Assembly: GCA_002293825.1 (NCBI GenBank)
Contig: DBDW01000012.1
Span: forward strand, 25,147 to 89,146
Length of the DNA: 64,000 bases
Reading direction: 5' to 3'
From: Candidatus Magasanikbacteria bacterium UBA922
GTDB lineage: Bacteria; Patescibacteriota; Patescibacteriia; Magasanikbacterales; UBA922
Shown here: positions 3,024 through 37,591 of the stretch, in pieces
How positions within the stretch are numbered: position 1 is the stretch's first letter
Layout of the letters: each line of letters opens with the position of its first letter
The notes under the pieces: model-generated
Databases searched by the model: none
Seen by the model: only the letters and a program-made list of their open reading frames with translations
What the model was told of the DNA's origin: nothing
Made by a program: the position numbers and the translations under genes

Positions 3024-4178
3024 ATGGCAACAAAAGCAGCTACTCAAAGTTTTGAGGAATTGTTGAAAGATTATTTTGCCCAGATTCCACAAGTGGGAGA
3101 TTTGGTCAAAGGACATGTCATCTCGATTGATCGAGGTGAGGTGCGCGTAGACATCAATGGTATTATCATCGGTGTGGTTCGCGGAGACGAATTATTTGGT
3201 GAATCAAAAGAATTTGCACATATTAAAGTGGGTGACGAGGTCGAAGCAACCGTGATCGAAGACGAGAATGAAAATGGTGAAATGGAACTCTCGTTTCGAG
3301 TTGCAGGTAATCGTCTCGTGTGGGAACGCATGGCAAAATATGTGAAAGAAGGTACGATTATTAAGGCGAAGATTATTCAGGCAAATAAAGGTGGTCTCAT
3401 GCTTCAAGCAGATGCATTGACCGGATTTATGCCTGTATCTCAGCTCAACCCAGACAACTATCCTCGGGTACAGGGTGGAGACAAGAATCGTATTCTCGAA
3501 CATTTGAAAAAATTTGTTGGTAATACAATTAAAGTTAAAGTTCTTGATGCAAATCAGGATGATGAAAAACTTATCTTCTCAGAAAAAGAAGTGTGGGAAG
3601 AAGAGCAGAAGAATATTCTTGATTCGTACAAAGTAGGTGATAAGATCGATGGTGAAGTGTCTGCACTCACTCCATTTGGAGCCTTTGTCAAATTCGGTGA
3701 AGGACTTGAAGGATTGGTACACATTTCAGAAATCGTCTGGCAACGCATTGACCATCCGAAAGATGTACTCAAAGTAGGAGACAAGGTGCATGCACAGATT
3801 ATCGATCTCAATAAGTCAAAAATCTACCTCTCGCTCAAGCGCCTCGTAGACGATCCATGGAAATCAGTGAAAGAAAAATATAAGATCGGACAGGTGGTAT
3901 CAGGTGAGGTTCATAAGGTAGAATCATTTGGTCTCATGGTAAAACTCGACCAAGAAATTCACGGTCTTGCACATATCTCAGATTTATCTGAAAAACGTGT
4001 TGCAGATCCGAAAACTCTGTTGTCGAAGTTTGAAATCGGTAAATCATACAACTTCGAAATCATCTCGATCGAGCCTGCTGAGCACCGTCTCGGACTCCGG
4101 CTTGAAGGGGTGAAGAAGCGAGAATCAAAACCAGAAGAAAAGAAAGAAGAAGTAAAGAGCGAGGAAGCTACGGCATAA
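3024..4178 (+). CDS. rpsA: 30S ribosomal protein S1 (four S1 domains)
   Basis: 384 aa with repeated S1-domain signatures (GxV..I...G.FV.L..G..GL.HISE). Confidence 0.9.
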   Translation: MATKAATQSFEELLKDYFAQIPQVGDLVKGHVISIDRGEVRVDINGIIIGVVRGDELFGESKEFAHIKVGDEVEATVIEDENENGEMELSFRVAGNRLVWERMAKYVKEGTIIKAKIIQANKGGLMLQADALTGFMPVSQLNPDNYPRVQGGDKNRILEHLKKFVGNTIKVKVLDANQDDEKLIFSEKEVWEEEQKNILDSYKVGDKIDGEVSALTPFGAFVKFGEGLEGLVHISEIVWQRIDHPKDVLKVGDKVHAQIIDLNKSKIYLSLKRLVDDPWKSVKEKYKIGQVVSGEVHKVESFGLMVKLDQEIHGLAHISDLSEKRVADPKTLLSKFEIGKSYNFEIISIEPAEHRLGLRLEGVKKRESKPEEKKEEVKSEEATA

Positions 4179-4183
4179 GTCAT

Positions 4184-4222
4184 AAAAGACCCTGTACCAG
4201 AACGGTACGGGTTTTTTATTTT
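4184..4222 (+). terminator. rho-independent terminator after rpsA
   Basis: Hairpin accctgtacc/ggtacgggt followed by a T run (gaccctgtaccagaacggtacgggttttttatttt). Confidence 0.6.
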
Positions 4223-4291
4223 ATCATTGACAAACCCTTCATTTCTCCTTATACTCACTCTATTGTATTCAATTAAGATGTTAGCTCTGAT

Positions 4292-6130
4292 ATGAAGCAA
4301 CTATTCAAGAATTTTTTTATTGTCTGCGTGACATTGTTTGTAATTGCATCACTTGTATCCATGGTGAATTTTTCAGGAGTACAGCCAGAAAGTGCACCTA
4401 TTTCTCGCTTGGTTGCGGAGATTAAGGCAGATGCCGTAAAGACAGTCGAAGTTCGTGGTGATACATTGGTAGTGTCTCTCAAAGATGAGAATGCAAAACC
4501 ACTCGAGGTGAAGCGAGAATTAGGTACATCGTTTGGTGAACTTATGACTTCGTACGGTGTGACTCCTGATGAGTTAAATAAAATTTCAGTCGAAGTAAAA
4601 GAAGAATCTGGATGGAGATTTTGGGTCAGTATCATTGCTCCATGGATCATTCCATTAGTTCTTTTTGTGGTACTTATTTTCTTTTTCACGAGACAGGTAC
4701 AGGGTGCTAATAGTCGAGCAATGGGATTCGGAGAAAGTCGTGCAAAAGAAGCAAAACCGGATGAACGTTCACGAAAAACATTTGCCGATGTAGCGGGTGC
4801 AAAAGAAGCAAAAGAAGAATTGTTGGAAGTGGTAGATTTTCTCAAAGATCCAAAAAAGTTTACTGATATGGGGGCAAAAATTCCTCGTGGTGTCTTGCTT
4901 ATGGGTTCGCCGGGTACAGGAAAAACATTGCTTGCAAAAGCAGTGGCAGGTGAAGCAGGGGTGCCATTCTTCCATATTTCAGGTTCAGAATTCGTAGAAA
5001 TGTTCGTAGGTGTAGGTGCTTCTCGGGTGCGTGATTTATTTAATAAGGCAAAAAAAGCAGCTCCAGCAATCGTGTTTATTGACGAAATCGATGCTGTGGG
5101 ACGTAAGCGTGGAGCGGGTCTTGGTGGAAGTCATGATGAGCGAGAGCAGACACTCAATCAGATCCTGGTAGAAATGGATGGATTCGAACCAAACATGGGA
5201 GTAATCGTTATGGCAGCAACCAATCGTCCAGACGTACTTGATCCTGCATTGCAAAGACCGGGTCGATTTGATCGCAGGGTGGTAATCGATTTACCAGATA
5301 TTAGTGATCGAGAAGAAATTCTCGGTGTGCATGCAAAGAATAAGAAACTCGCTCCTGAAGTATCTCTGAAAAAACTTGCAGAACGCACTCCAGGATTTTC
5401 GGGTGCTGATTTGGAAAATTTATTGAATGAAGCGGCAATTCTTGCGGTGCGACGAGGGAAGATTGTGGTAGACGAGGGTGATATACTCGAAAGTATTGAA
5501 AAAGTAATTTTGGGTCCAGAGAAAAAGTCTCGTTTAATGACTCTAAAAGATCGTGAGATGACCGCGTATCACGAAGCAGGACACGCAATTGTGGGGCATT
5601 TCCTCCCTAATTGTGACACTGTACGAAAGGTATCAATTATTGGTCGAGGAATGGCAGGGGGCTACACACTGAGTATGCCTGAGACAGATGTACGATACCG
5701 TACGCGTGCACGATTCAAGGATGAGTTAGCTATGATTCTCGGGGGGTATGTGACAGAGCGTATGATCTATGGTGATGACCAGCTCTCGACTGGTCCATCA
5801 AGTGATATCAAGAAGGCTACACAATTGGCAAAATCAATGGTAATTCGATATGGAATGAGTGATAAATTAGGGCCACGCCAATATGGTGAAAACGAGGAAC
5901 TTATTTTCTTGGCACAAGAAATTCATGATAAGAAAAACTATAGTGAAAAGACTGCAGAATTAATTGATAGCGAGATCAATGGTCTTCTTGAAGAAGCGTT
6001 AAAACGTGCTGAACAGGTGATTACTGAGCGTCGTCAAGAAATGGACAAGCTCGTCAAAGTCTTGCTTGAGAAAGAGACCGTGGAGCAAGAAGAATTTGTA
6101 CATATCGTAGGTACATCTACGAAATCATAG
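4292..6130 (+). CDS. ftsH: ATP-dependent zinc metalloprotease FtsH
   Basis: N-terminal TM helix. AAA Walker [27 protein letters not shown] region, and zinc-binding HEAGHAIV motif. Confidence 0.95.
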
Positions 6131-25870: not shown

Positions 25871-28134
25871 TATATATGAGTACACATACATACAAAATTA
25901 CAGGCATGCATTGTGCGAGTTGTGCGTCTGTAATTACCAAAAAATTATCAGCTGTGCCACATGTGCGTTCGGTTTCAGTAAACTATGGTACTGAGAAGGC
26001 AAAAATTGATTTTGATGACACTCATACTTCTCTCGACACATTGAATGGAGTGGTAGGTACATTGGGTTATACGCTTTCTGCGATAGATCACTCTGGTGCG
26101 GCTGAGCCAGAGTCTGTTACTAAAAAAATAGATGAACATGCTGAGCTTAAAAACAAAACTAATTTTATCCTTCCGATTGCATTATTAGTGTTTATACTCA
26201 TGATGTGGGATATTGGTGCGCAGATTTTTACAGGTGTTCCAAATTTTCCGATTCCGATGACATTATTCAATACGATTGGAATGGTATTGGCCACGATCGC
26301 ATTGTTTTGGGTGGGACAGCCATATATGCGTGGGATATTCAGATTTGCTCGATATGGAGTGGCAAATATGGATACACTTATTGGGATTGGGACATTCTCA
26401 GCATATCTGTATAGCATGAGTATCACACTTATTCCTCTGTTTTGGTCGTCACGCATGGTACCAGAATATACGTATTTTGATGTTACGATTGTGGTTATTG
26501 GTTTTATTACATTGGGTAAGTATTTGGAAGCTGTATCAAAGAAAAAGACTGGTGATGCGATTGAAAAACTTCTTAATTTGCAGGCCAAAAATGCTTTGGT
26601 AGTTCGAGAGGGTGTAGAGATTGAGATTCCTGTGAATCAGGTGCAACGTGGCGATATGATTGTGGTAAAACCGGGTGCAAAAATACCAGTTGATGGTGTT
26701 ATTGTTGAGGGTAGTTCTTTTGTTGATGAATCAATGGTAACGGGCGAGCCAATGCCAGTACAGAAAAAAATTGATGATACAGTAGTGTCTGGAACCATTA
26801 ATACCACCGGGTCATTTGTGTTTAGAGCGACAAAGGTGGGGTCTGAAACTTTTCTTGCCCAAATCGTTACGATGATTGAAGAAGCGCAGGGGAGTAAAGC
26901 ACCAATTCAGGCATTGGTCGATAAAATATCATCGGTGTTTGTGCCCACAGTACTCGTGATCGCTGGTATTACCTTTGTAACGTGGTTAAGTGTTGGTTCG
27001 ATATATCTTGGTTTTTCTCAGGCATTTTCATTTGGATTAGTTTCATTTGTGGGAATTTTGGTAATCGCGTGTCCATGTGCGTTGGGACTAGCCACACCCA
27101 CGGCGATTATCGTAGGTGTGGGAAAAGGTGCGGGGGCAGGGATCTTGGTGAAGGATGCTGCAACACTTGAGAAGTTGCATATGGTAGATACAGTGGTCGT
27201 CGATAAAACAGGAACCATTACTCAGGGTAAGCCCACATTGGTGAAGGTGCTCAATTTTTCTCGCATGAGTGATGTGGAATTAATTTCGATTACAGCGTCA
27301 CTGGAAAAAAAGTCTGAACATCCAATCGCACATGCGATTGTGCGTTATGCAGAAGAAGAAAATATTTCTATTTCAGAAGTTTCTGTGTTTGAAAGTGTGC
27401 AGGGGAAAGGTATTAGGGGACGTATCAATGGTACTGAGTATCTTGTGGGTAACAGGATACTCATGAGTGAGCATGGACTTGCCTTTGATCATGTGGCTAT
27501 TGATGAATATACTGCTCAGGGAAAAACACCGGTAATACTTGCTACCGCAGATCAGGTGCTTGGCATCATTATGGTTGCTGATGAAGTAAAACCAGAATCA
27601 AAACAAGCGATTGCAGATCTTCATGCACTAGGTATCACGGTGGTAATGCTTACGGGGGATGATGAGAAGACTGCGCGGTATGTTGCTTCTCTTGTGGGGA
27701 TTGATGATGTGATCGCTCAGGTGCTCCCTCAAGATAAGCGTGAAAAAGTACATACACTTCAGAAAAATGGGAAGGTGGTAGCTATGGCTGGCGACGGAGT
27801 TAATGATGCTCCTGCACTCGCGCAGGCTGATGTAGGTATTGCAATGGGAACGGGAACTGACGTAGCAATTGAATCAGCGGGTATTACGCTATTGGGGGGC
27901 GATATCTCAAAATTGGTTAAAGCAATTCGATTATCAAATATGACCATGCGAGGTATTAGACAAAATTTATTTTGGGCCTTTATCTATAATATCGTAGGTA
28001 TTCCACTTGCAGCTGGAGTGTTTTATCCATTGTTTGGGTGGGTACTCAATCCGGTTTTTGCGGGGTTTGCGATGGCGCTTTCGTCAGTGTCAGTGGTTTC
28101 AAATTCACTACGTATTAAGGCTAAGAAATTATAG
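25867..28134 (+). CDS. copA: copper-translocating P1B-type ATPase
   Basis: N-terminal HMA domain [13 protein letters not shown] motif ([11 protein letters not shown]). DKTGTIT phosphorylation site. GDGVNDAP hinge. Confidence 0.95.
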
Positions 28135-28158
28135 GTATACATATTAAAATTTTTATCT

Positions 28159-29166
28159 ATGAGTACGCATACGTTTCATGTTTCAGGAATGCATTGCGCA
28201 TCGTGTAAAATATTTATCGAGGATACGTTGAATTCTCACGAGTTGGTTCGTGTCGCGCAGGTAGATTTGAAAAAAGAAATTCTTCAGATTGAAACAAGTT
28301 CTACACATTCACCTGCAGAACTTGCAGATATTTTGACAAATGAAGTTGCATCAAATGGATATACTATTTCTGTTGAAAAAACAGGAGAAGGTATCAAAGA
28401 TAGTAATGATTTTTGGAAAGCTTTACCAATTGGACTTGGTGTTCTCGCTCTTTTTTTTCTGGTTCAAAAATCAGGTTTGTTGGATATTGGAGTCGGTGGG
28501 CAGATTACACCGGTTACTGGTTTTTTAATTGGGCTGATTGCTTCGGTATCTAGCTGTCTTGCAGTCGTAGGTGGTCTCGTCTTATCTCTTTCAGCAAATC
28601 TTGCTCAAGGTACTGTTCGAAACGCTAAAATATTGGTACAGTTTCATGTAGCACGTATAGTAAGTTTTGCTATGTTGGGTGGGGTGCTTGGTATGATCGG
28701 CGGTGTGATTGGTATTAATTTTACACTTACCACGATATTGGGAATCATAGCTTCTACTATAATGCTTGTGTTAGGTTTGAATTTATTGGGTGTAATTAAA
28801 AAAAATAATTTGGTTTTTTCTTCTCGTTTTTTTAACTTTTTTACACGCAATAAACGTTCAATCATTGCACCGTGGTTATTGGGTTTTGCAACATTTTTTT
28901 TACCGTGCGGATTTACCCAGTCTATGCAGGTTTCAGCATTGAGCAGTGGCTCATTTTTATCTGGATTGTTAATACTGTTTTCATTTGCATTGGGAACACT
29001 ACCAGTACTAGCGTTTCTTTCATTTGGTTCAGTCTCATTTGCGCGCGGAAATCATGCTTCATTATTTTTCAAATCTGCAGGAGTGGTAGTTATTGGTCTA
29101 GGATTATTTGCACTACTTTCTGGCCTTGCAGCACTTGGAATTATTACTCCGTTATTTAGTATCTAA
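28159..29166 (+). CDS. HMA-domain protein fused to a multi-TM domain with conserved cysteines (DsbD_2/CcdA-like or MerT-like)
   Basis: N-terminal GMHCASC metal-binding domain, then about 6 TM helices carrying Cys in SSCLAVVGG and FLPCGFTQS. Confidence 0.6.
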   Translation: MSTHTFHVSGMHCASCKIFIEDTLNSHELVRVAQVDLKKEILQIETSSTHSPAELADILTNEVASNGYTISVEKTGEGIKDSNDFWKALPIGLGVLALFFLVQKSGLLDIGVGGQITPVTGFLIGLIASVSSCLAVVGGLVLSLSANLAQGTVRNAKILVQFHVARIVSFAMLGGVLGMIGGVIGINFTLTTILGIIASTIMLVLGLNLLGVIKKNNLVFSSRFFNFFTRNKRSIIAPWLLGFATFFLPCGFTQSMQVSALSSGSFLSGLLILFSFALGTLPVLAFLSFGSVSFARGNHASLFFKSAGVVVIGLGLFALLSGLAALGIITPLFSI

Positions 29167-29170
29167 TTGT

Positions 29171-29566
29171 ATGAATAAAACTATTTCAATTGGTATTGCA
29201 CTTGTGTGCGTTGTGGGGATAGGAATCATATTGTTTGGGAAGTTTGAAAACACTACACAATCCTCTGAAATCGTAAGCGGGTCTAATGTTGAAATACGAG
29301 ATGGGGTGCAATATGTAACAATTACGGCGCGTGGTGGATATTTCCCAAAAAACTCTGTTGCAGAAGCAGGTATTCCCACCACATTAATTGTGAAGACAAA
29401 TAATACCTATGATTGTTCATCTGCATTAGTTATTCGATCTTTGGGATATCAGAATATGTTATCTCCGAGCGGGGAAGAGGTGATTGAGGTGGGTGTGCCA
29501 ACGACTGGTAAACTGCAGGGTCTGTGTAGTATGGGGATGTATTCTTTTGCGATTGATTTTCAATGA
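29171..29566 (+). CDS. small secreted cupredoxin-like copper-binding protein (putative)
   Basis: 131 aa. N-terminal TM/signal, a beta-rich body, and C...CSMGMY-type Cys/Met ligands near the C-terminus. Last gene of the copper operon. Confidence 0.45.
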   Translation: MNKTISIGIALVCVVGIGIILFGKFENTTQSSEIVSGSNVEIRDGVQYVTITARGGYFPKNSVAEAGIPTTLIVKTNNTYDCSSALVIRSLGYQNMLSPSGEEVIEVGVPTTGKLQGLCSMGMYSFAIDFQ

Positions 29567-29668
29567 TTTTTTTGAATGCGCCTGTGGGAGTGTTATCCAC
29601 AAATAACGATAATAATTTATTGACAAACGATAAGTGTTTTTGTAGGATACACGTATCACTCAATAAAT

Positions 29669-30160
29669 GTGTATAGTATGAAACACGCTTCCACTCATTT
29701 TTTGCGAGCAGTAATTTTTGCAGTAGGTATTGGAGTTTTGGCATTATGTATTTTCGCGTTTCCTGGATTGGGTACGGGATGGACCGCTGAGTTTCCGACA
29801 GCACCAAAATCTGGATACGTGGTGATGGCATCATTCTACGCAGCCTCGGTACCGTTTTTTCTCGCGTTGTTTCAGATGTTGAAGTTGTTGAGGTATATTG
29901 ATACTAATAAAGCTTTTTCAGAAGAATCAGTGCGTGCGTTGCAGGCTATTAGTCGGTATGCGATTGCGATGACGGTGGCATTTATGACATATATGCCCGC
30001 AGCATTTCATTTTGCGGAAATTGATGACGCGCCTGGTGTTATTTTATTTGCAGTTGCATTTGCGTGTTCTCCATTGGTAGTTGCGGTAATTGCAGCGGTT
30101 CTCAAAAAATTATTACAAAGTGCTGTAGATATGAAGCATGAACACGATTTAATGGTCTAA
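29669..30160 (+). CDS. DUF2975-family membrane protein
   Basis: 163 aa with 4 TM helices. Immediately followed by a small XRE HTH gene, the classic yozG-type DUF2975/HTH pair. Confidence 0.65.
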   Translation: MYSMKHASTHFLRAVIFAVGIGVLALCIFAFPGLGTGWTAEFPTAPKSGYVVMASFYAASVPFFLALFQMLKLLRYIDTNKAFSEESVRALQAISRYAIAMTVAFMTYMPAAFHFAEIDDAPGVILFAVAFACSPLVVAVIAAVLKKLLQSAVDMKHEHDLMV

Positions 30161-30170
30161 TAGTATTTCT

Positions 30171-30374
30171 ATGTCAATTATTATCAATATTGATGTGATG
30201 CTTGCGAAGCGCAAAATGAGTGTTACTGAACTTACTGATAAAGTAGGAATTACCATGACTAATCTTTCAATTCTCAAAAATGGGAAGGCAAAAGCAATTC
30301 GTTTTTCCACACTTGAAGCGATTTGCAAAGCACTTGATTGTCAGCCTGGAGATATTTTAGAATATAGAACATAA
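30171..30374 (+). CDS. XRE-family HTH transcriptional regulator (YozG-like)
   Basis: 67 aa. LAKRKMSVTELTDKVGITMTNLSILKNGKAKAIRFSTLEAICKALDCQPGDIL: HTH_XRE. Confidence 0.8.
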   Translation: MSIIINIDVMLAKRKMSVTELTDKVGITMTNLSILKNGKAKAIRFSTLEAICKALDCQPGDILEYRT

Positions 30375-30383
30375 ATATTTTGT

Positions 30384-30569
30384 ATGAAAAAATGGTATAA
30401 AAATTATTTGGATGCTCAGAAAAAGGCACAACCAAAATCAGATAATACAACTTCCTTACCGAATAAGCCGGTAACACGTCCCTCGAATACGCATGGGGGT
30501 GCTAAAAAATTTCGTGATCCAGTCGCAGTGGGAAAACGTACACGTTCAAAAACATTTGGTGCGTCTTAG
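30384..30569 (+). CDS. small basic hypothetical protein
   Basis: 61 aa, Lys/Arg-rich. Coding status uncertain. Confidence 0.3.
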   Translation: MKKWYKNYLDAQKKAQPKSDNTTSLPNKPVTRPSNTHGGAKKFRDPVAVGKRTRSKTFGAS

Positions 30570-30656
30570 TTTTTTGATGAGGACACAAGTGCGTGTTTGA
30601 TTGAGTATCTGAAATCAGATATACTCTTGGTATTAATGTATATTCTACACTCATTC

Positions 30657-30810
30657 CCTAACACCTGCTGTATGCAGGATGCCGGTAATCGTGGTAGTGT
30701 TACCCCATACATAGTCATCGGCATTGACGGGGTAACAATTGCTCGATTTTTGGAAAAACAAAAGTGTGTTAAGCTTTTGAAAGACCTCATTGAATATATA
30801 TGTGTTAGGT
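30657..30810 (+). repeat. structured palindromic element (attC-like family member) immediately upstream of the RT operon; candidate ncRNA
   Basis: Bounded by a perfect 8-bp inverted repeat CCTAACAC ... GTGTTAGG. Internal hairpins cctgc-tgtat-gcagg, gttacccc-22nt-ggggtaac and gatgtt-ctgccc-aacatc. Shares the 5' motif GTATGC(A/G)G and the 3' motif GTTAGnT-GATGT with elements at 47189, 47674 and 53459. Confidence 0.55.
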
Positions 30811-30836
30811 AGATGTTCTGCCCAACATCTTAGGGA

Positions 30837-32057
30837 GTGAGTGTATACTGTATGTTTTCAACAATTATATCTGCCAAGAATTTGGAAGGAGCGTATTTGG
30901 ATTTGGTTGAAAAATTTGCCGAAGATGGTAAAGAATTTACATATCATGGTATTGATAACTATACTCTCCTTGACTACGATTTTGATTCACTTGAATTACT
31001 TTCGAGAGTGCGTGACGAATTGATAGAGAAAAAACCTCTTGATCCTGCGCTCTTACTTCACATTCCAAAGAAGCATAATCCTGCAAAGACTCGGGATATT
31101 TTTGTATATACATTGAAAGAGCGAGTAAAAGCTCAGGCATTGTATCGGGTAGTGGTTCCATTGTTTGAACATTATTTTTCTAATCGCCTATTTTCGTATC
31201 GTCCTGGTAGACCACCATCTATTGCGGCGTATCTTTTTGCACGAAGGTATCGTCGATATCATAAGACCGATCACTGTCTCGTCGTAGATCTTCAGAATTA
31301 CTCCAATCTTTTAGACACTACAATTCTATTTGAACAACTAAAGAATGTGATTCCTGATTCTCGTGTTCGTGATCTCCTCAGATTATTTATCGTGAACCCG
31401 CTCTACGAACAAGGGGTGATACGTTCTATGGATCAGGGTGTTGTACAAGGTGTTCCGTTGATTGCATTATTTGCAAATTTATATCTCACGGATCTCGATT
31501 ATCGGTATCAAAAAATGGTGTCTTTCTATATTCGTGTGGGCGACGATTTGGTGCTTGCTGATCAGAATTCAGATACAATCGCACGAGTAGGTGAGCAATT
31601 AAAAGAAGATCTTCATGTGCGAGGACTCGAACTTAATCATGATAAATGGTACAGAGGACCTGCTCGTGGCGATTTTTCCTTTTTAGGATATCGTTTTTCG
31701 GCTGGACGTATCAGACTTGAGGATGGGTATGTGCGCTCGATGGTGCGTACCTGGAATCGATTATTGGTCGATAAACATAAAACAAAATCACAAAAATACG
31801 CACTGTTGGTACGTATTATGCGGCACCCTACACGAAATTTTACGAATCAATTTGAAGAGATGGTTCGAAGTAAACCTCAACTTAATGACAGTGAACAAAT
31901 TAAAGTATTGTCTGAGCGTTTTTTTGCAATTCTTACTGAATTTTATTTTGTTCGCTATACTCCACGTAATCGACGATTGCTCACTCGAGTGATTCGTGAT
32001 TTGGGGATACAATCACTGTATCATGTATATACACGTTTTCATTATGAACGATCCTGA
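30837..32057 (+). CDS. reverse transcriptase, standalone, non-retron, non-intron; VGDD catalytic box
   Basis: 406 aa. RT0 GIDNYT. RT1 LLHIPKKHNPAKTRDIFV. RT2 FSYRPGRPPSIAA. RT3/A LVVDLQNYSNLLD. RT4/B' QGVVQGVPLIALFANLYLTDLD. RT5/C FYIRVGDDLVLA. RT6 GLELNHDKW. RT7 FSFLGYRF. No VTG triplet, no maturase/X domain, no intron domain V downstream. Confidence 0.85.
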   Translation: MSVYCMFSTIISAKNLEGAYLDLVEKFAEDGKEFTYHGIDNYTLLDYDFDSLELLSRVRDELIEKKPLDPALLLHIPKKHNPAKTRDIFVYTLKERVKAQALYRVVVPLFEHYFSNRLFSYRPGRPPSIAAYLFARRYRRYHKTDHCLVVDLQNYSNLLDTTILFEQLKNVIPDSRVRDLLRLFIVNPLYEQGVIRSMDQGVVQGVPLIALFANLYLTDLDYRYQKMVSFYIRVGDDLVLADQNSDTIARVGEQLKEDLHVRGLELNHDKWYRGPARGDFSFLGYRFSAGRIRLEDGYVRSMVRTWNRLLVDKHKTKSQKYALLVRIMRHPTRNFTNQFEEMVRSKPQLNDSEQIKVLSERFFAILTEFYFVRYTPRNRRLLTRVIRDLGIQSLYHVYTRFHYERS

Positions 32058-33786
32058 TATCATGTCTCATACACGTATTCATATACAAGCACGATTATTG
32101 CGTCGTGCAAAAAAAAGGATCTACGCATGGCGTACGATTGTGTTGACTCGTTTTCACTATCGTCATGTGCTACATTTTTTGAAAACATATCGTGCGTTTG
32201 TATATGGACTATGTGCATTATTGATAACCCAGCTACTGGTAGAGACTGCGCTTATTATCATAGGGAGGCACTATAGTTATTTTGATACATCGTCTGTTGT
32301 GTATTCATATGTTGGATGGATTATCGCGGTACTTAGCAGTGTTTTTTTGTTGGTTTCTTTTTTTGCGCTGAAGTATGAACGAACACTGATAGTCTATTTT
32401 GCGAATCATATTCGAAAGAGATTGTTTGCTTCATATATATACGGACACGCGTCTTCATCGCGCGCACGTGCTCGATTGATTGCACAAATTTCATATCATG
32501 TGCCATTGGTTTCTCTCGGAGTTTCACATGTATTTTTTGGTGTATTGAGAATTGTGTTGTATGGTGGAGTGGTGGGAATCCTTGCGTATGTAGGAAATTT
32601 TTCTGTGTGGATATATAGTGGAGTGTATGTACTGGGGTGTGGTGTAGTTTTTCTTTTCGCATATTTCTTTTCTCGATACTGGACTTCCCAAGAAGTTACG
32701 TATTATTCGAGGATTATGCAGGGAATTGAGATTGATGCGTCTGATACAGATTTTATTACTATGTTTGGACAAAAAGAACGCATTCTTACTATGTTTGATC
32801 GATTGGTCGAATTTGATTCTTTTTTTCGCATACGACGAGATGTGTTTATGGGAATTGGGTATGCAGTCGTATTTGTACTGGTGCTCATATGTTCGATAGT
32901 GGTGCATGCACATCCTCAGATACTCAATTCTGTCATCACATCTCCATATAGCGCGGAGCGTATAGTAGTAATCTTTTTGTTTGTGTATATTTCTCGTGCA
33001 TTGGTGCAGGCATATCGCGCTGGTTTGTATATTTTTCCTGCTCGACTTGGACTTTTTTTAACACTTCGATCTACACGCACATCACCAGTACATAAGAAAG
33101 ATATTTCTTTGTCGGGAAAATCGATCCGTTTTCATGCTCGCAAGACAAAATTATTTTTTGAAAGTCCCTATTATCGACGTATGGATTTTTTGTTTCATCC
33201 AGGAGATCGTATTCTCATTCAGGGAGACAATCTTTCCGGCAAGACTTCGTTTGCGCGAATGTGTGCGGGTATTTCTGCATACACGCCACGAGCATTTACG
33301 ATTACAGTAGGTGAGGAACGACTTGATTTTTTCCAGTGGCACGCGCGGGTAGCGCGTGAGGTATACGTGTATGACCCGTCTATCAGAACTGAACGAAGTT
33401 TGATTGAATATATTGTGGGAAAGGTAAAAGAAGATATTTCTGCTGAAGAGTTTGCATCAGTGATTGCACATATACACAATTATCCGTCAATCGTAGCACT
33501 GGTAGCGCCTGATGGGAATTACAATGTTTCAGCACGGCACGTGTTGTCGAATCCGATTCAGGCATGTGCGCTTCATATACTGCACTGTATTGTATCAAAG
33601 CCATCGTTTATTATTATTGATAATTTTTGGATTGATCTCAATTATCCGCGTATTCGTGATATGATGCAGATACTTGATACAGCGGTACCATCATCGATTA
33701 TTCTCGTTTGCTCTCGCGTGTCCAATGAGTACTTTTCGTATACACAACACTATGTCTTCGCGAATACGATCACACGTCTCCTCTAA
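32044..33786 (+). CDS. 6-TM membrane domain fused to a degenerate ABC-type nucleotide-binding domain
   Basis: The start overlaps the RT stop by about 14 nt (MNDPDIMSH...). About 6 TM helices, then Walker A GDNLSGKTS. Signature-like LSNPIQ in place of LSGGQ. Walker B FIIIDN (catalytic Glu replaced by Asn). H-loop His absent (ILVCSRVSN). Confidence 0.7.
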   Translation: MNDPDIMSHTRIHIQARLLRRAKKRIYAWRTIVLTRFHYRHVLHFLKTYRAFVYGLCALLITQLLVETALIIIGRHYSYFDTSSVVYSYVGWIIAVLSSVFLLVSFFALKYERTLIVYFANHIRKRLFASYIYGHASSSRARARLIAQISYHVPLVSLGVSHVFFGVLRIVLYGGVVGILAYVGNFSVWIYSGVYVLGCGVVFLFAYFFSRYWTSQEVTYYSRIMQGIEIDASDTDFITMFGQKERILTMFDRLVEFDSFFRIRRDVFMGIGYAVVFVLVLICSIVVHAHPQILNSVITSPYSAERIVVIFLFVYISRALVQAYRAGLYIFPARLGLFLTLRSTRTSPVHKKDISLSGKSIRFHARKTKLFFESPYYRRMDFLFHPGDRILIQGDNLSGKTSFARMCAGISAYTPRAFTITVGEERLDFFQWHARVAREVYVYDPSIRTERSLIEYIVGKVKEDISAEEFASVIAHIHNYPSIVALVAPDGNYNVSARHVLSNPIQACALHILHCIVSKPSFIIIDNFWIDLNYPRIRDMMQILDTAVPSSIILVCSRVSNEYFSYTQHYVFANTITRLL

Positions 33787-34945
33787 GGTGAATATACTTG
33801 TATGGATACTTCCAGTGTGCGGACTGCTCGTAGTGACTGCATTATTTGTGTTTTTTGTTTCTAAAGGTTCTGTGAGAATTTCTCAGTCGGTATATCAGGG
33901 TGAAATAATTAAGTCCGAAGAGCCGTTTTCTGGAGAAGTGTATGCGAATACAGAATTTGAGGGAACTATCTTTTCCGATCTCATCGTTTCCCTGATCGAT
34001 CAGGCGACGACACGTATTGAGATTGCAGTGTATTCAATGAATCATCCGCGTATTCATGATGCATTGTATCGAGCTTCAGATCGGGGAGTGTTGGTGACAC
34101 TTCTCCTAAGTGCGTCTCGATCACAGACACATTCAATTGTTTTTTCTGATTTTCCTGATCAGATTACACGTATTGAGTATGATCCTCAGCGTGGATACAT
34201 GCATCATAAGTTTTTAATTGTCGATCGAGGACTTTCGAATGAAGTGCTTGTGTTTGGGTCATATAATTTTACAGAATTACAAGAGCGGTATGATGCAAGT
34301 TTTGTACTGAAAACTACGGATACACAAATTATTTCTATATTTGGTAGAGAATTTGATCGACTGGTGCGCAATGTGGGAACGAGCACGACTCATCTGTCTG
34401 ATTCTATGCCATCGATGACTCGCATAGAATATCCAGAAGGTGATTTGGAGATTTGGTTTTCTCCACCGGTATCACTTGGTACAGGTATACGTGAGCGTGT
34501 ACTCAATCTGATTACTCATGCGACAGAACGTATTCGTGTGATGATGTGGAGTATTACCGATACTCATGTCGCACGTGCACTGGTCTCTGCTGCTCGAGCA
34601 GGAAAAAGAGTGGAAATATTGACCGATGATTCGACGATGTTTAATACACATTCGGTGATTCCTGATCTGCATGAGGAAAAAGAAACACACACATTGAACA
34701 TGTTTGAAATTTTTACGGATGCAAAAAGGACAGAAGAGGTGTCTCCGGATATGGATACAGGATTTAATCCATTTTTACACCATCACACGACGATTATTGA
34801 TAGTAGAATTGTCCTGTTTGGAACGAGTAATTGGAGTGCAAATGGTTTTTATTATAACAATGAAGCCACTATGATCAGTACGATTCCATATCTAATTTCT
34901 TCATTTGAACATATTTTTGAGGATAATATGGCGCGATCAAAATGA
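33752..34945 (+). CDS. membrane-anchored phospholipase D-family protein with two HKD-type motifs, the second degenerate
   Basis: Overlaps the upstream gene end. N-terminal TM helix. First motif HHKFLIVDRGLSNEVLVFGSYNFT (HxKx4Dx6GSxN). Second motif HHHTTIIDSRIVLFGTSNWS (Lys replaced by His/Thr). Confidence 0.75.
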   Translation: MSSRIRSHVSSKVNILVWILPVCGLLVVTALFVFFVSKGSVRISQSVYQGEIIKSEEPFSGEVYANTEFEGTIFSDLIVSLIDQATTRIEIAVYSMNHPRIHDALYRASDRGVLVTLLLSASRSQTHSIVFSDFPDQITRIEYDPQRGYMHHKFLIVDRGLSNEVLVFGSYNFTELQERYDASFVLKTTDTQIISIFGREFDRLVRNVGTSTTHLSDSMPSMTRIEYPEGDLEIWFSPPVSLGTGIRERVLNLITHATERIRVMMWSITDTHVARALVSAARAGKRVEILTDDSTMFNTHSVIPDLHEEKETHTLNMFEIFTDAKRTEEVSPDMDTGFNPFLHHHTTIIDSRIVLFGTSNWSANGFYYNNEATMISTIPYLISSFEHIFEDNMARSK

Positions 34946-35026
34946 GTAAGAATGGTTGTGTTGGAGGAAATAGTGAGGTACTATACTGGTATGTAAGTTT
35001 TTTGGTAAATACCTAATGTTAGCGGT

Positions 35027-35383
35027 ATGCGTACATGTGTAGTGAGATATGTGTATATTTTTTGCACCGTATTGTTGTTGACCGGATGCACTGCGGAGAT
35101 CGAAACCGAAAAAGTAGATACCACATTAGGTGTGCCATCTCCATTTTTGAGCAATGGGGCATGTGAAGAGGACGCTGACTGTGTGCTCACCGACGCACTG
35201 TATGATCCCTGTGGGAGAGTGTACGCAATTCATATGAATACAAGTGAGGATGCTATTGAGAGATATAATGAATTGCAGATGAGGATTACAGAAGGTAGGC
35301 AGTATGATTGTGATATGCCTCCAAAGATTGAGGATTATCGAGCATTGTGTGAGAAACGTGTGTGTACTGCACGTCAAAGATAA
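35027..35383 (+). CDS. small Cys-rich lipoprotein
   Basis: Signal peptide with lipobox LLLTGC. 118 aa with 9 Cys. Confidence 0.5.
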   Translation: MRTCVVRYVYIFCTVLLLTGCTAEIETEKVDTTLGVPSPFLSNGACEEDADCVLTDALYDPCGRVYAIHMNTSEDAIERYNELQMRITEGRQYDCDMPPKIEDYRALCEKRVCTARQR

Positions 35384-35390
35384 ATAGGAT

Positions 35391-35942
35391 ATGCATCTGA
35401 TACTCATTTTAGGGCCCATGAAAAGTGGAAAATCATTTGACTTGATTAGTCATTTTTCTCCGCTCAAGTATACACACACATCATTTGGATTATTTCAGCC
35501 GGTACGCAATGTGCGAGATAATAAGATTGAATCTCGAAGCGGATTATTTCTTGATGCAGTGAAAATTCAGTCACTTTCTGAAATTGTAGATCGCGAATAT
35601 TCAGTCGTGGGGATTGATGAAGTGCATATGTTTGATCCTCGTGATGCGTATTATGTGGGCGTATTGTTGTCACGAGGTGTAGAGGTAATTATTTCTGGAC
35701 TCGATACTGATTATCGTGGTGAAATGTTTCAGATGGTAAAAAAATTGTTTGAGCTCGGACCAAAAGAGGTGCGGTACAAACGAGCGGTGTGTAATGAATG
35801 TAAGAATTTTTCTGCAACACATACCCAAGTGTACAGCTCTCACAAACCGCTTACCGAAGGGATGCCCCCAGTGATTCCTGATGATGGAACTTTTACCTAT
35901 GAGCCGGTATGCCGCACGTGTTTTGTCTCGAGCAATCTCTAA
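35391..35942 (+). CDS. tdk: thymidine kinase
   Basis: P-loop GPMKSGKS. IDEVHMF. C-terminal zinc ribbon CNEC...CRTC. Confidence 0.9.
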   Translation: MHLILILGPMKSGKSFDLISHFSPLKYTHTSFGLFQPVRNVRDNKIESRSGLFLDAVKIQSLSEIVDREYSVVGIDEVHMFDPRDAYYVGVLLSRGVEVIISGLDTDYRGEMFQMVKKLFELGPKEVRYKRAVCNECKNFSATHTQVYSSHKPLTEGMPPVIPDDGTFTYEPVCRTCFVSSNL

Positions 35943-36091
35943 ATGTGTATACAAAAAAACACCAGGAATTCTGATGTTTTTTTGAGAGTGGAGCAAACGG
36001 CGTGCTCCATGTCCACCTACAGCTGCAGGCCGTTATACACAGTGTGAAGTGATTGTGTATCTGCAGTGTTACCCAGGATTTTCGTGATTCT

Positions 36092-36730
36092 CTAGGAATT
36101 GGAACGATCAAGGTAATCTCGTAACCTTTCTCGAGTTATCTCGACGAGGTGTTGTCGTGCACGGAAGAGGCGAGACATCACAGTACCGACGGGAACGTGT
36201 GTGTCATCTGCGATTTCGTCCTGCGACTTTTCTTTCCACACGTACAGTAGTATAGTTTTTTTGAATTTCGGGGACAGGTGCTCGAGTCCTTCTTCGAGTA
36301 TGTGTCTACACTCCATGTGCTCGAGTGCAGTGTGGGGATCAGTGTGCACTGATGGAGTGAAGTGGTTTCGATCCGAATGATAGGTCTCGTCATACGAATC
36401 ATATCCACGTTTCAGGTGCTTGTCCCGAAGCATGTTCAGTGCGATGTTTCTACTGATGTGAAGAATCCAGGCACGGAAATTCGTACCTTCCTGGAATGAA
36501 TGAGCATGGAGATGAATGCGGAGGAACGTCTCCTGTGTCACATCTTCTGCGACCGCAGTGTTGTGTACGATTTTCAGCACCATTCTGAATATCAGTGCAT
36601 GAAAATGAAGGTACAGTTTACGGAACGCGCCATTGGCATTTTGTTTCCACTGTGCGACGAGTTCTTCTTCTTGTGTACGAGCTGGTGTGGAAGACGACCG
36701 TGGTTTCGGGTGGATTGTACGTTTTTTCAT
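36092..36730 (-). CDS. ECF-type RNA polymerase sigma factor (sigma-70 regions 2 and 4)
   Basis: 212 aa. Region 2 (FRKLYLHFHALIFRMVLKIV...DVTQETFLRI) and region 4 HTH (LLYVWKEKSQDEIADDTHVPVGTVMSRLFRARQHL). Confidence 0.85.
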   Translation of the reverse strand: MKKRTIHPKPRSSSTPARTQEEELVAQWKQNANGAFRKLYLHFHALIFRMVLKIVHNTAVAEDVTQETFLRIHLHAHSFQEGTNFRAWILHISRNIALNMLRDKHLKRGYDSYDETYHSDRNHFTPSVHTDPHTALEHMECRHILEEGLEHLSPKFKKTILLYVWKEKSQDEIADDTHVPVGTVMSRLFRARQHLVEITRERLRDYLDRSNS

Positions 36731-36871
36731 GTGAGGTACTCCAGTATGGGTGGGAGTTTCATGATGAGAAAAGCACTATGGTATATGTAAACATACGAGG
36801 GTGATGTGGTCAAATTTTACATTGACTTTTTTGGGGTATATTGATATGTTCTCAAGTCTATAGATGAAATT

Positions 36872-37591
36872 ATGAAAAAAATATTACTCACCTCTCATCA
36901 CAATGAAATTGAGTCTGAAAAAGTGTTTGGACTTCCTTCGGTTGTGGTGCAGGATTATAAAGTATTCCCATTTCACGCTGAAGGAGCACTACCATTGGTC
37001 GTCCCAGCTCTTACTTTTTCACGAAATGAATTGCGTGCCATGGTTGCTGAGACAGATCTTGTTATTTTGACTGGTGGTCATGATGTGGACACTGCTCGGT
37101 ATGGTGAATCAGTACGATATCCCACGGTAGAAGTGTATTCGTGTCGAGATGATATTGAGTTTGGCTTGCTTGAGGCAGCGGTAGAGCTACGAAAACCAGT
37201 GTTTGGTATTTGTCGAGGATTACAAGTGATCAATGTATTTTTTGGTGGATCGCTTCATCAGAATCTGCATCATGATGTCTCAGGAACGTTTGGACATTGC
37301 CAACCCAAAGAAGATATCGAGAAATTGCTTCATCCAATTATGATTGAATCTGATTCATTTTTGTCTCGTATTTTTCCAGAATCACCTGAAATCATGGTGA
37401 ATTCTTTTCACAATCAAAGTGTGAATAGGCTTGGAAATGGTCTCAGTGTGTCTGCTACAAGTAGTGATGGAATTATTGAGGCAATTGAACACACGGTGTA
37501 TCCCATTTATGCGGTGCAGTGGCATCCAGAAAAATCATATCGCGTTGACGTGGCTTCACAACAATTGATTCGAGCAATGGTGGCGTTATAG
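36872..37591 (+). CDS. class I glutamine amidotransferase, peptidase C26 (gamma-glutamyl hydrolase, PuuD-like)
   Basis: Catalytic Cys in GICRGLQ. VQWHPE His motif. Confidence 0.85.
   Translation: MKKILLTSHHNEIESEKVFGLPSVVVQDYKVFPFHAEGALPLVVPALTFSRNELRAMVAETDLVILTGGHDVDTARYGESVRYPTVEVYSCRDDIEFGLLEAAVELRKPVFGICRGLQVINVFFGGSLHQNLHHDVSGTFGHCQPKEDIEKLLHPIMIESDSFLSRIFPESPEIMVNSFHNQSVNRLGNGLSVSATSSDGIIEAIEHTVYPIYAVQWHPEKSYRVDVASQQLIRAMVAL

Follow-up and report, generated by a model that had tools for sequence, protein, structure and literature searches.

The exporter fold of ATP-binding cassette (ABC) transporters does not always serve ATP-driven export; in SbmA/BacA, and also in Rv1819c, an exporter-fold transmembrane domain (TMD) is used without ATP hydrolysis or in the import direction, and SbmA has no nucleotide-binding domain (NBD). 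Reverse transcriptase (RT) modules, such as retrons and defense-associated RTs (DRTs), have repeatedly revealed new biochemistry, and some of them include ATPase-like or membrane partners; retron-Septu combines the ABC-type ATPase PtuA with the nuclease PtuB, DRT10/UG17 carries a SLATT membrane effector, and DRT1 carries a small membrane protein. Exporters with a degenerate ATP site represent a further group of described systems; in nucleotide-binding site 1 (NBS1) of Pdr5, for example, the Walker B Glu is changed to Asn, the H-loop His is lost, and the signature reads LNVEQ (PMC7756269). In the degenerate-site exporters described so far, a single site is degenerate and the second one is canonical; ATP presumably remains at the degenerate site, where it would act as a glue or hinge, and the consensus site receives an intact signature from the chain whose Walker B and H-loop are dead (PMC7756269). 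Here we describe a locus in a 64,000-nt stretch of DNA from Candidatus Magasanikbacteria bacterium UBA922 (GCA_002293825.1, contig DBDW01000012.1, forward strand, 25,147-89,146), in which a gene for an ABC-like protein with a degenerate NBD lies between genes for an RT and a phospholipase D-type (PLD) protein, and in which the RT gene is preceded by a structured leader RNA. This whole stretch is referred to as the window, and all coordinates count from its first letter. Our best overall reading, to which we assign a probability of roughly 0.6, is that the ABC-like protein acts as a non-hydrolyzing membrane adaptor in a four-part module composed of the leader RNA, a group-II-like RT, a pseudo-ABC exporter, and a membrane-anchored tandem Nuc-like PLD.

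The open reading frame (ORF) of the ABC-like protein extends from 31996 to 33786 on the plus strand, and the ATG at 32044 yields a product of 580 aa (32044..33786, +), which consists of an N-terminal basic helix and six-helix TMD (aa 1 to ~345, 32044 to ~33080) and a C-terminal degenerate NBD (aa ~355-580, 33106-33786). A reading of the window made from the sequence alone (hereafter the sequence-only reading) had described the homology of the C-terminal domain to ABC NBDs as clear. Taken as a single sequence, the window protein supports this claim weakly, as it matches Pfam ABC_tran with only 14.6 bits (E=0.05), under the curated cut-off of 25 bits; its NCBIfam matches are short, sub-threshold, and limited to the P-loop, and a PADLOC scan returned nothing meaningful (mad8, E=0.045). 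With a family profile and a predicted fold the homology does become clear, and it extends to the whole type-I exporter architecture. The profile was built from 37 aligned homologs (set A1), which were obtained in a search of 5.8e9 proteins; 26 of these 37 match ABC_tran (E<=0.01) and 14 match ABC_membrane. Against the PDB, the A1 profile aligned with type-I exporters over both TMD and NBD, including P-glycoprotein (P-gp; 2e-12), PCAT1 (6e-11), MsbA, PglK, and HlyB, so that the C-terminal domain is placed with the NBDs of ABC exporters, in agreement with the Pfam matches of the individual members. An AlphaFold2 (AF2) model based on A1 showed six long transmembrane helices followed by an alpha/beta domain, with a mean predicted local distance difference test score (pLDDT) of 83.6 and NBD blocks that are mostly >90, and Foldseek matched this model over its full length to MsbA, TAP, PglK, TM287/288, TmrAB, BmrCD, and HlyB (E ~1e-15, TM 0.6-0.7), at an identity of just 13-15%. 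The family is discrete; its profile matched 985 of 1.84e9 representative proteins at E<=1e-3 and 88 at E<=1e-30, and scores beyond the latter set fall sharply, toward canonical exporters. The profile and the model show that the ABC-like protein is a full-length, extremely diverged descendant of the ABCB-type (type-I) half-exporters.

With regard to the NBD motifs, hidden Markov model (HMM) alignments of the family to PCAT1 and P-gp allowed each motif to be compared with its canonical counterpart, and residues were counted in 45 orthologous sequences, i.e., the window protein and the proteins of 44 genomic loci recovered with the ABC-like alignment from 185,579 species genomes. The Walker A motif, or P-loop, is retained (GDNLSGKT, aa 394-401, 33223..33246, +); it aligns with GESGSGKT of PCAT1 (family GenlsGKTsLa, canonical GESGSGKTTLA) and lies in the AF2 model between a strand (aa 389-393) and a helix (aa 397-408). 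Among the 43 orthologs that are not gapped at this motif (two are), G399 and T/S401 are found in all, and position 400 is K in 38 and R in 5. The Walker B motif and a D-loop that is two residues shorter than the canonical one (FIIIDN-FWID, aa 522-532, 33607..33639, +) align with LLLDEATsaLD (family lividnlW..lD); the Walker B Asp, D526, is present in 44 of 44 orthologs and the D-loop Asp531 in 41 of 44, and position 527, where the catalytic Glu is expected, is N in 43 and Q in one, and never Glu. The LSGGQ signature is replaced by LSNPIQ (aa 501-506, 33544..33561, +), as judged from the HMM alignment to LSEGQ/LSGGQ (family vlsnplsafalhalhcL, canonical LSEGQKQRLAIARAL), with N in 36 and S in 7 orthologs at position 503 and GG in none. 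The H-loop position, where the catalytic His would be expected, is Ser557 (33712..33714, +; VCS aligned with IAH, family iivfsrk aligned with canonical IIIAHRL), and orthologs carry Ala (23), Ser (19), or Thr (1) there, and never His. The Gln of the Q-loop corresponds to Pro445, which is the family state (P in 37 of 44 orthologs, Q in 3). Near the A-loop position an aromatic residue is found (F371; F in 38 and Y in 4 orthologs), and the NBD has gained residues that are invariant specifically in this family, including W529, R389, G409, and F363.

The motif assignments of the sequence-only reading were thus borne out by alignment to solved exporters and do not reflect misalignment. Its statement that every catalytic position has drifted holds for the residues of hydrolysis and gamma-phosphate sensing, but goes too far for the window's branch of the family, in which the P-loop, the Walker B Asp, and Asp531 of the D-loop are kept; the alignments confirm a division in which the residues that bind nucleotide and Mg survive, whereas those for hydrolysis and for sensing the gamma-phosphate do not. 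A single ABC-like chain is degenerate in both halves of a composite ATP site, on the P-loop side as well as on the signature side, and it follows logically that no consensus ATP site can be formed either in a homodimer or with a canonical partner. The protein is predicted to be unable to act as an ATPase, and, as its motifs depart from four defining catalytic features, we would not class it among functional ABC ATPases.

The loss of these residues has not been accompanied by relaxed selection. In eight orthologue pairs, the ratio of nonsynonymous to synonymous substitution rates (dN/dS, Nei-Gojobori) was 0.05-0.26 for the NBD and 0.06-0.23 for the TMD, RT and PLD were indistinguishable from these, and the mean pairwise divergence was similar for NBD (0.63) and TMD (0.60). 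The degenerate NBD is under purifying selection and hence functional. The earlier proposal of selection for a non-hydrolytic role gains further weight from the degenerate residues themselves, as N527, W529, and D531 are near-invariant. As to what this role may be, nucleotide sensing and scaffolding had both been put forward, and 66 full-length representatives of the wider family help to choose between them. The H-loop His is found in 0 of 66, the Walker B Asp is followed by N (35), H (8), P (5), S (5), or Q (3), and the GK[ST] P-loop is lost in 24 of 66. Two of these 24, P0127 and P0112, are each encoded between an RT fragment and a PLDc_2 gene, and the more distant P0138, also without GK[ST], lies in a full triad between RVT_1 and PLDc_2 x2, at a locus where the RT keeps its RVGDD motif and the PLD keeps both of its motifs. 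Since members without a P-loop still occur in the RT/PLD context, much of the family can do without nucleotide binding. What the NBD-like domains have in common is then structural, and a scaffold role is favored over nucleotide sensing, which is weakened. In one lineage the ABC-like gene is split into two overlapping frames (L028:5944-7685), with a frameshift near aa 220; the four records with this split (L028, L060, L061, and L063) are 100% identical, so that an assembly error, a pseudogene, and a programmed shift are indistinguishable, and four copies of one sequence are uninformative on whether a programmed frameshift recurs.

The gene upstream of the ABC-like gene encodes a free-standing RT derived from group II introns (30852..32057, +), as indicated by a Pfam RVT_1 match (5e-10) and by profile matches to the PDB, i.e., to GsI-IIC (2e-29), Cas6-RT-Cas1 (1e-26), DRT2 (8e-12), G2L4 (2e-8), and retron Ec86 (2.5e-6). 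The mechanically called ORF begins at a GTG at 30837, and the N-terminus of the family aligns at the ATG at 30852. The protein matches NCBIfam group_II_RT_mat at 5e-31, with 108 bits against a cut-off of 300, and is below every NCBIfam cut-off. Across the family there is no variation in the motif A Asp, the steric-gate Tyr, or motif C, the last of which reads RVGDD (RT aa 228-232) throughout, as compared to YxDD in group II, retron, and DRT RTs. On this residue pattern the RT looks catalytically competent and DNA-synthesizing. Of the three proteins it evolves most slowly (0.53 in mean pairwise distance, versus 0.61 and 0.59 for the other two). Assignment to a known RT class was considered and rejected in each case. 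A mobile group II intron is contradicted by the group_II_RT_mat score under its cut-off, by the overlap of the ABC-like gene with the RT stop, and by the lack of an intron RNA around the RT in an Rfam search of 28000-37000 at E<=1. Membership in the retron RT clade is contradicted by a retron_St85_RT score of 21 bits against a cut-off of 235 and by a match to Ec86 (2.5e-6) far behind that to the group II RT (2e-29), and the UG/Abi (DRT) RTs are similarly remote (NCBIfam Drt3a 34.7 against a cut-off of 200, Drt2 29.3 against 390). PADLOC gave 109 bits for RT_UG26 and 81 bits for RT_UG17, which are not above the 117 bits of the generic RT model, and the partners of UG26 and UG17 (YcjD and SLATT) differ from those seen here.

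Downstream of the ABC-like gene lies the gene for a membrane-anchored tandem PLD protein of Nuc/Zucchini type (33725..34945, +; Pfam PLDc_2 2e-38 in two stretches), which starts at an ATG at 33725 or 33752 and, at either one, overlaps the end of the ABC-like gene. Further matches include NCBIfam NucT (1e-17) and PADLOC DrmC (2e-19), with a weak match to bac_cardiolipin (2e-5), and the profile matched NucT (2e-17), MitoPLD/Zucchini (1e-15), and Nuc (2e-13) in the PDB; the protein is thus predicted to be an enzyme of the nuclease clade. A signal-anchor helix (aa 24-45, 33794-33859, +) is present as a single N-terminal hydrophobic helix in 44 of 44 orthologs, and it follows a short, very basic tail (K/R 204 before the helix versus 97 after it, over the 44 orthologs). 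The nuclease domain is accordingly predicted to lie outside the membrane, with the RT and, by exporter topology, the NBD inside. The first HKD motif is intact (MHHKF..D..GSYN, 34199-34267, +); MHHKFLIVD..GSYN is invariant, and the pattern HxK(x)4D(x)6G[ST]xN is present in domain 1. In the second (FLHHH..D..GTSNWS, 34772-34837, +) His takes the place of Lys, so that H-x-H replaces H-x-K, and in the aligned family motif (FLHxHxxxxD...GTxNWS) H354 is invariant in 30 of 30 sequences, giving what is predicted to be an asymmetric pseudo-dimer active site. At one locus (L074:3053-4318) two neighboring ORFs (3053-3694 and 3698-4318) each encode one of the PLD domains, in place of one fused gene. A single-sequence AF2 model of the PLD protein (pLDDT 41) was discarded.

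The gene context, which we regard as the most important outcome, is one in which the three protein genes are tightly linked. The ABC-like start overlaps the end of the RT gene by 14 nt, and the PLD start overlaps the 3' end of the ABC-like gene; from these overlapping reading frames we conclude that the three genes are translationally coupled. In all 44 genomic loci, RT, ABC-like, and PLD genes occur in the same order, on one strand, and as overlapping ORFs (42 loci are complete and two are cut by a contig end), and those loci that are informatively named all belong to Patescibacteria (Falkowbacteria, Magasanikbacteria, Peregrinibacteria, Parcubacteria, and "Patescibacteria group"). Among 64 metagenomic loci, which were seeded with an RT alignment (A4) in 241 million metagenome records, nearly every one with enough flanking DNA has the ABC-like and then the PLD gene after the RT; the single exception, L112, carries a distant RT fragment (27% identity) with no ABC-like match in the ~1.7 kb of flank. 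In two loci (L102:1-2514 and L107:2-3817) the ABC-like gene, plus the PLD gene in L107, is divergent, on the opposite strand and upstream of the RT, and, as the genes are still together despite this rearranged order, their linkage survives rearrangement. The ABC-like gene was never seen with a canonical transporter partner, but always between RT and PLD. When the pairwise-distance matrices of the three proteins are compared (38 loci), they correlate with r = 0.93-0.94, and the proteins evolve as a single unit without component swapping. The suggestion that the ABC-like protein takes part in a membrane complex with the RT and the PLD is therefore well founded as regards genetic linkage (triad in 44/44 genomic loci), and physical contact is what we infer from it. 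Several genomes hold two diverged copies of the module (L012 and L021, on contig PHAI01000003.1; L018/L035; L022/L037; L026/L039), and each copy in these genomes has its own version of the leader RNA.

This leader RNA, of ~200 nt (30646..30845, +), was recognized by covariation, folding energy, and conservation; over 200-350 nt ahead of the RT gene, the DNA is conserved even where the proteins are 35-50% identical. It is built from a closing stem of 12-17 bp (P1), the 3' strand of which holds the Shine-Dalgarno-like GGGAG/GGGGA of the RT, a small hairpin (P2), a long bulged hairpin with a 7-nt apical loop (P3; loop UCGGCAU, UUAAUAU, or UUGAUAU), a variable hairpin (P4), and a 3' hairpin (P5), with a conserved single-stranded stretch, CCUCNUUGGAUUUAAU, between P4 and P5. 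The P3 loop pairs in a covarying pseudoknot with the single strand between P2 and P3 (AUGCCGG, AUAUUAG, or AUAUCAA). The RNA folds with a minimum free energy (MFE) of -78.8 kcal/mol (z = -7.45), a stability that none of 200 shuffles reached, and independent folding gave the same architecture for nearly all of 25 homologs. RNAalifold found compensatory changes in 17 of 20 pairs. MAFFT left P2, lower P3, and part of P1 one column off between sub-groups, and only well-registered helices were counted; in these, 89% of cells are paired (35-46% when the partners are slid), both sides vary in 26 of 32 pairs, covariation scores 0.598 versus 0.30 in shuffles (0/500), and the pseudoknot helix is 96.6% paired. 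The Rfam search (28000-37000, E<=1) contained nothing like this RNA, and its architecture, with the long closing stem, is unlike msr/msd. An alternative reading of the conserved upstream block as a small ORF of 71 aa (30597-30812) was rejected, as the conservation tracks base-pairing, including compensatory changes, and the indels are not multiples of three. A consensus scan placed a promoter-like TTGATT-17 nt-TATACT (30597..30625, +) ~20 nt upstream of the RNA; one such site was found versus 1.8 expected in shuffles, which is not significant by itself, and a TATAAT/TATACT-like box lies at the same alignment position in homologous loci. No terminator-like site was seen between the promoter-like site and the RT. 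The RNA could serve as the template or primer of the RT, for which retrons and DRT2/9/10 offer parallels, as an RT-binding autoregulatory site that covers the ribosome-binding site as group II intron DIVa does, or as both. A second group of paralogs has a longer leader RNA of the same plan. In a distant sub-family without the P-loop, a near-perfect inverted repeat of ~55 bp is found upstream of the RT (L046:2500-2720; MFE -130.6 kcal/mol, z = -14), which is unlike the leader RNA of the main family and may be another RNA or the end of a mobile element.

Three features go beyond the sequence-only reading, i.e., the leader RNA, the PLD domain predicted to lie outside, and the degeneracy of both site halves in one chain. 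As a working model, a dimer of the ABC-like protein would be the membrane adaptor of an RT module, and its TMD dimer would be the sole part able to bridge a cytoplasmic RT-RNA particle and a nuclease domain outside; no other component combines membrane spans with large cytoplasmic domains. The NBD-like domain would provide a platform for dimerization and docking, and nucleotide bound but not hydrolyzed in the window's branch would be at most a latch or regulator. In the AF2 model the best-conserved motifs of the protein (SQEVTFYS, FDRLVxFDSFFRIRRD, and GLYxFPARLG) lie in intracellular helices beside the coupling helices, and these helices may form a functional interface, i.e., a docking site for the RT-RNA particle or its product. 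The PLD anchor helix would lie against the TMD, keeping the nuclease at the outer side, and the RT would bind the leader RNA and copy part of it, with the state of the RNA-cDNA-RT assembly governing the membrane/nuclease pair. The components of this reading differ in strength. That the ABC-like protein is a dead-ATPase structural component of an RT-PLD membrane module is, in our judgment, highly probable. A control logic of the retron/DRT kind is a tentative proposal that we consider somewhat doubtful, and an antiviral purpose seems rather unlikely. The purpose of the module may be defense or nucleic-acid handling; classical abortive infection is made less likely by the syntenic, non-defense surroundings and by a nuclease placed outside.

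A number of points weigh against this reading. Contact among the three proteins is deduced from genetic linkage, and the topology of the PLD is a prediction from the positive-inside rule alone; a nuclease outside the membrane is, in addition, hard to fit to known abortive-infection logic. Two thirds of the family keep the P-loop, an argument for nucleotide binding being still of importance in those members. A purely cis-regulatory leader RNA is also conceivable, which would act in RT autoregulation like that of group II intron DIVa or as a riboswitch, and not as a template. Defense islands were not recognizable around the 44 loci or in the window, and the annotated neighbors are housekeeping and surface genes; the triad is found next to cupredoxin-like, pilin-like, SDR, NUDIX, rubrerythrin, and HlyD genes, as well as genes for a giant unannotated protein and an uncharacterized 194-aa protein, and in the window next to genes for a P-type ATPase, a DsbD-like protein, a DUF2975 protein with a helix-turn-helix (HTH) protein, and thymidine kinase. 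Local synteny around the triad is kept within lineages, and no relative was found on IMG/VR viral contigs. This non-defense, syntenic, non-viral setting fits a domesticated housekeeping role at least as well as it fits defense.

Among the alternatives, the one that survives best makes the TMD a conduit rather than an adaptor. Patescibacteria rely on scavenged nucleotides, and in H. pylori a role in taking up DNA and salvaging purines has been ascribed to NucT. The exporter-fold TMD might form a channel through which single-stranded nucleic acid passes between the outside nuclease and the inside RT, with translocation driven or rectified by RT polymerization, i.e., by the energy of deoxynucleoside triphosphates (dNTPs), which would make ATP hydrolysis by the NBD dispensable. 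Transport could be inward, with foreign RNA or DNA being processed by the nuclease outside and the incoming strand copied by the RT, or outward, with cDNA being threaded out and trimmed there. The predicted placement of PLD and RT on opposite sides of the membrane, with the TMD of the ABC-like protein as the sole membrane-spanning link, suits such a conduit, as do the exported or membrane-tethered nature of the nearest PLD relatives (NucT and Nuc), the loss of the ATPase under strong selection for the fold, and the many invariant Arg residues of the intracellular helices (FRIRRD, R318, R334); the chromosomal, syntenic, non-defense context fits as well, and thymidine kinase or NUDIX genes are found at some loci, though at a minority only. 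On the other hand, passage of nucleic acid is not known for any ABC exporter fold, no helicase, single-stranded DNA-binding protein, or ligase is linked to the operon, the leader RNA would need a separate role, e.g., as a primer or regulator, and the proposal as a whole is wholly inferential. We regard the conduit as improbable, and slightly more so in its fullest, translocon version, in which the tandem nuclease sits at the outer mouth, the RT sits at the inner mouth loaded with the leader RNA as primer or guide, and dNTP polymerization replaces ATP hydrolysis; a substitution of this kind would explain why the NBD has lost catalysis while its fold is under selection.

If the adaptor reading is set against one in which the substrate is a lipid, the comparison is less even. 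The ABC-like protein might be a passive or proton-driven flippase that works with a PLD on the outer leaflet in lipid or envelope remodeling, with SbmA/BacA as a precedent for function without an NBD; the substrate would be a phosphodiester-containing lipid or polymer, the PLD would be a phosphatidyl-transferase or hydrolase, and RT and leader RNA would be regulatory only. The lipid flippases MsbA and PglK are indeed top structural matches, the PLD is membrane-anchored and belongs to a superfamily that includes cardiolipin synthases (the weak bac_cardiolipin match of 2e-5), and the sequestration of the RT ribosome-binding site by the P1 stem is compatible with a regulatory leader. The PLD profile nevertheless fits the nuclease clade (NucT, Zucchini, and Nuc) far better than lipid enzymes, the RT keeps all of its catalytic residues and evolves most slowly, which is unexpected for a mere regulator, and its linkage is nearly invariant in genomic (44/44) and sufficiently long metagenomic loci. 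We therefore consider lipid remodeling very unlikely.

Less probable still is an ordinary, fast-evolving exporter, in which the NBD would remain an ATPase or NTPase with non-canonical residues or in which the substitutions would be alignment artifacts. In its favor, the window's branch keeps an intact P-loop, Walker B Asp, and D-loop Asp, Patescibacteria proteins are generally divergent, and some sites with a Walker B Glu-to-Asp change retain slow hydrolysis (PMC7756269). Against it, the mapping of the motifs by HMM alignment agrees with the secondary structure of the model, and Glu, His, LSGGQ, and Gln are replaced jointly and consistently in the 45 orthologs; in the wider family, none of 66 representatives has the H-loop His and a third lack the P-loop. 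The small number of profile matches (985/1.84e9 at E<=1e-3) puts the family far outside normal exporter divergence. A decaying pseudogene or relic domain, although suggested by the lost catalytic motifs and by the one frameshifted lineage, can safely be dismissed given intact ORFs in ~100 loci, the dN/dS of 0.05-0.26, the newly invariant NBD residues (W529, D531, R389, G409, and F363), and the high-confidence NBD model.

Some features of the neighborhood stand apart from these questions. The DUF2975 membrane protein gene of the window (29669-30160, +) is followed by that of the 67-aa HTH-type protein (30171-30374, +), and a DUF2975 gene recurs upstream in the two closest loci, L001 and L002; the two genes are probably an unrelated regulator/membrane pair. 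A very basic ORF of 61 aa (MKKWYKNYLDAQKK...) at 30384-30569 (+) separates the HTH gene from the leader RNA. Triads of the second paralogue group (L025, L026, L031-L035, L037, L038, and L043) have conserved neighbors of their own, with a protein of 1260-1490 aa without a Pfam match encoded upstream and the 194-aa protein and one or two cupredoxin-like proteins encoded downstream, which may be either further components or syntenic surface proteins; in L035, the genes for the 194-aa protein and a cupredoxin-like protein are upstream of the triad instead of downstream.

If confirmed, the ABC-like proteins would represent a natural family of ABC half-exporters without a canonical ATP site in which the whole fold, including the NBD, is under strong selection, and hence a clean opportunity to learn which tasks an exporter scaffold can perform once hydrolysis is lost, and what ATP binding contributes by itself. 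The locus also represents a strictly conserved four-part Patescibacteria module, consisting of the leader RNA, the RT, the pseudo-ABC protein, and the predicted outward nuclease, in hosts that depend on exchanging nucleic acids and nucleotides with their surroundings; were the translocon version true, it would provide genome-reduced Patescibacteria with a new way to take up or put out nucleic acid. We found no description of an RT/ABC/PLD module in the literature searched on DRTs, UG RTs, G2L RTs, and Patescibacteria, a limited body of work, so that the lack of a described association is no proof of novelty. Given their small size, the leader RNA and the three proteins could be reconstituted directly.

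Compared with MsbA, PglK, TAP, TM287/288, PCAT1, and HlyB, the ABC-like protein shares the six-helix domain-swapped TMD, the C-terminal NBD, and the order of the motifs; the P-loop, the Walker B Asp, and the D-loop Asp of type-I half-exporters are kept as well, whereas the low identity, the replacement of the catalytic Glu, His, LSGGQ, and Gln, and the shortened D-loop set it apart from them. The kinds of substitution are the same as in TM287/288, TmrAB, BmrCD, TAP1/2, CFTR, MRP1, and Pdr5, but the asymmetry that defines these degenerate-site exporters is absent, as one and the same ABC-like chain is degenerate at Walker B, H-loop, and signature, and a third of the wider family has no P-loop. 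SbmA, which dispenses with the NBD, differs in that the ABC-like protein keeps the NBD fold under selection. With regard to the PLD, Nuc, NucT, and Zucchini (MitoPLD) are the top profile matches for both halves, and membrane tethering or export is typical of that clade; the protein described here differs in the fusion of the two domains, the His for Lys in the second HKD motif, and the signal anchor. G2L4-type RTs share with the RT of this module a domesticated, group-II-type RT with no Rfam intron match and a non-YADD motif C, but the match to G2L4 is distant (2e-8), its motif C is YIDD rather than RVGDD, and G2L4 acts alone in DNA repair; a survey of G2L neighborhoods reported queuosine/glycosyltransferase cassettes and defense islands and mentioned no ABC or PLD genes (PMC8632793). 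Finally, as in retrons and DRTs, a free-standing RT directly follows a structured RNA, here with a long closing stem, and is followed by coupled, co-evolving, effector-like genes that provide a P-loop-type protein, a nuclease, and membrane spans. Unlike in those systems, the RT is group-II-derived, the effectors (a pseudo-ABC exporter and an exported Nuc-like PLD, as predicted) are not among the described ones, and the loci lie outside defense islands. No described RT system joins a cytoplasmic polymerase to an extracytoplasmic nuclease by a transporter fold, as is predicted here, and the system as a whole is most like the modules of RT, non-coding RNA, and effector, with an RT that is neither a retron nor a UG/Abi RT and with effectors other than those described.

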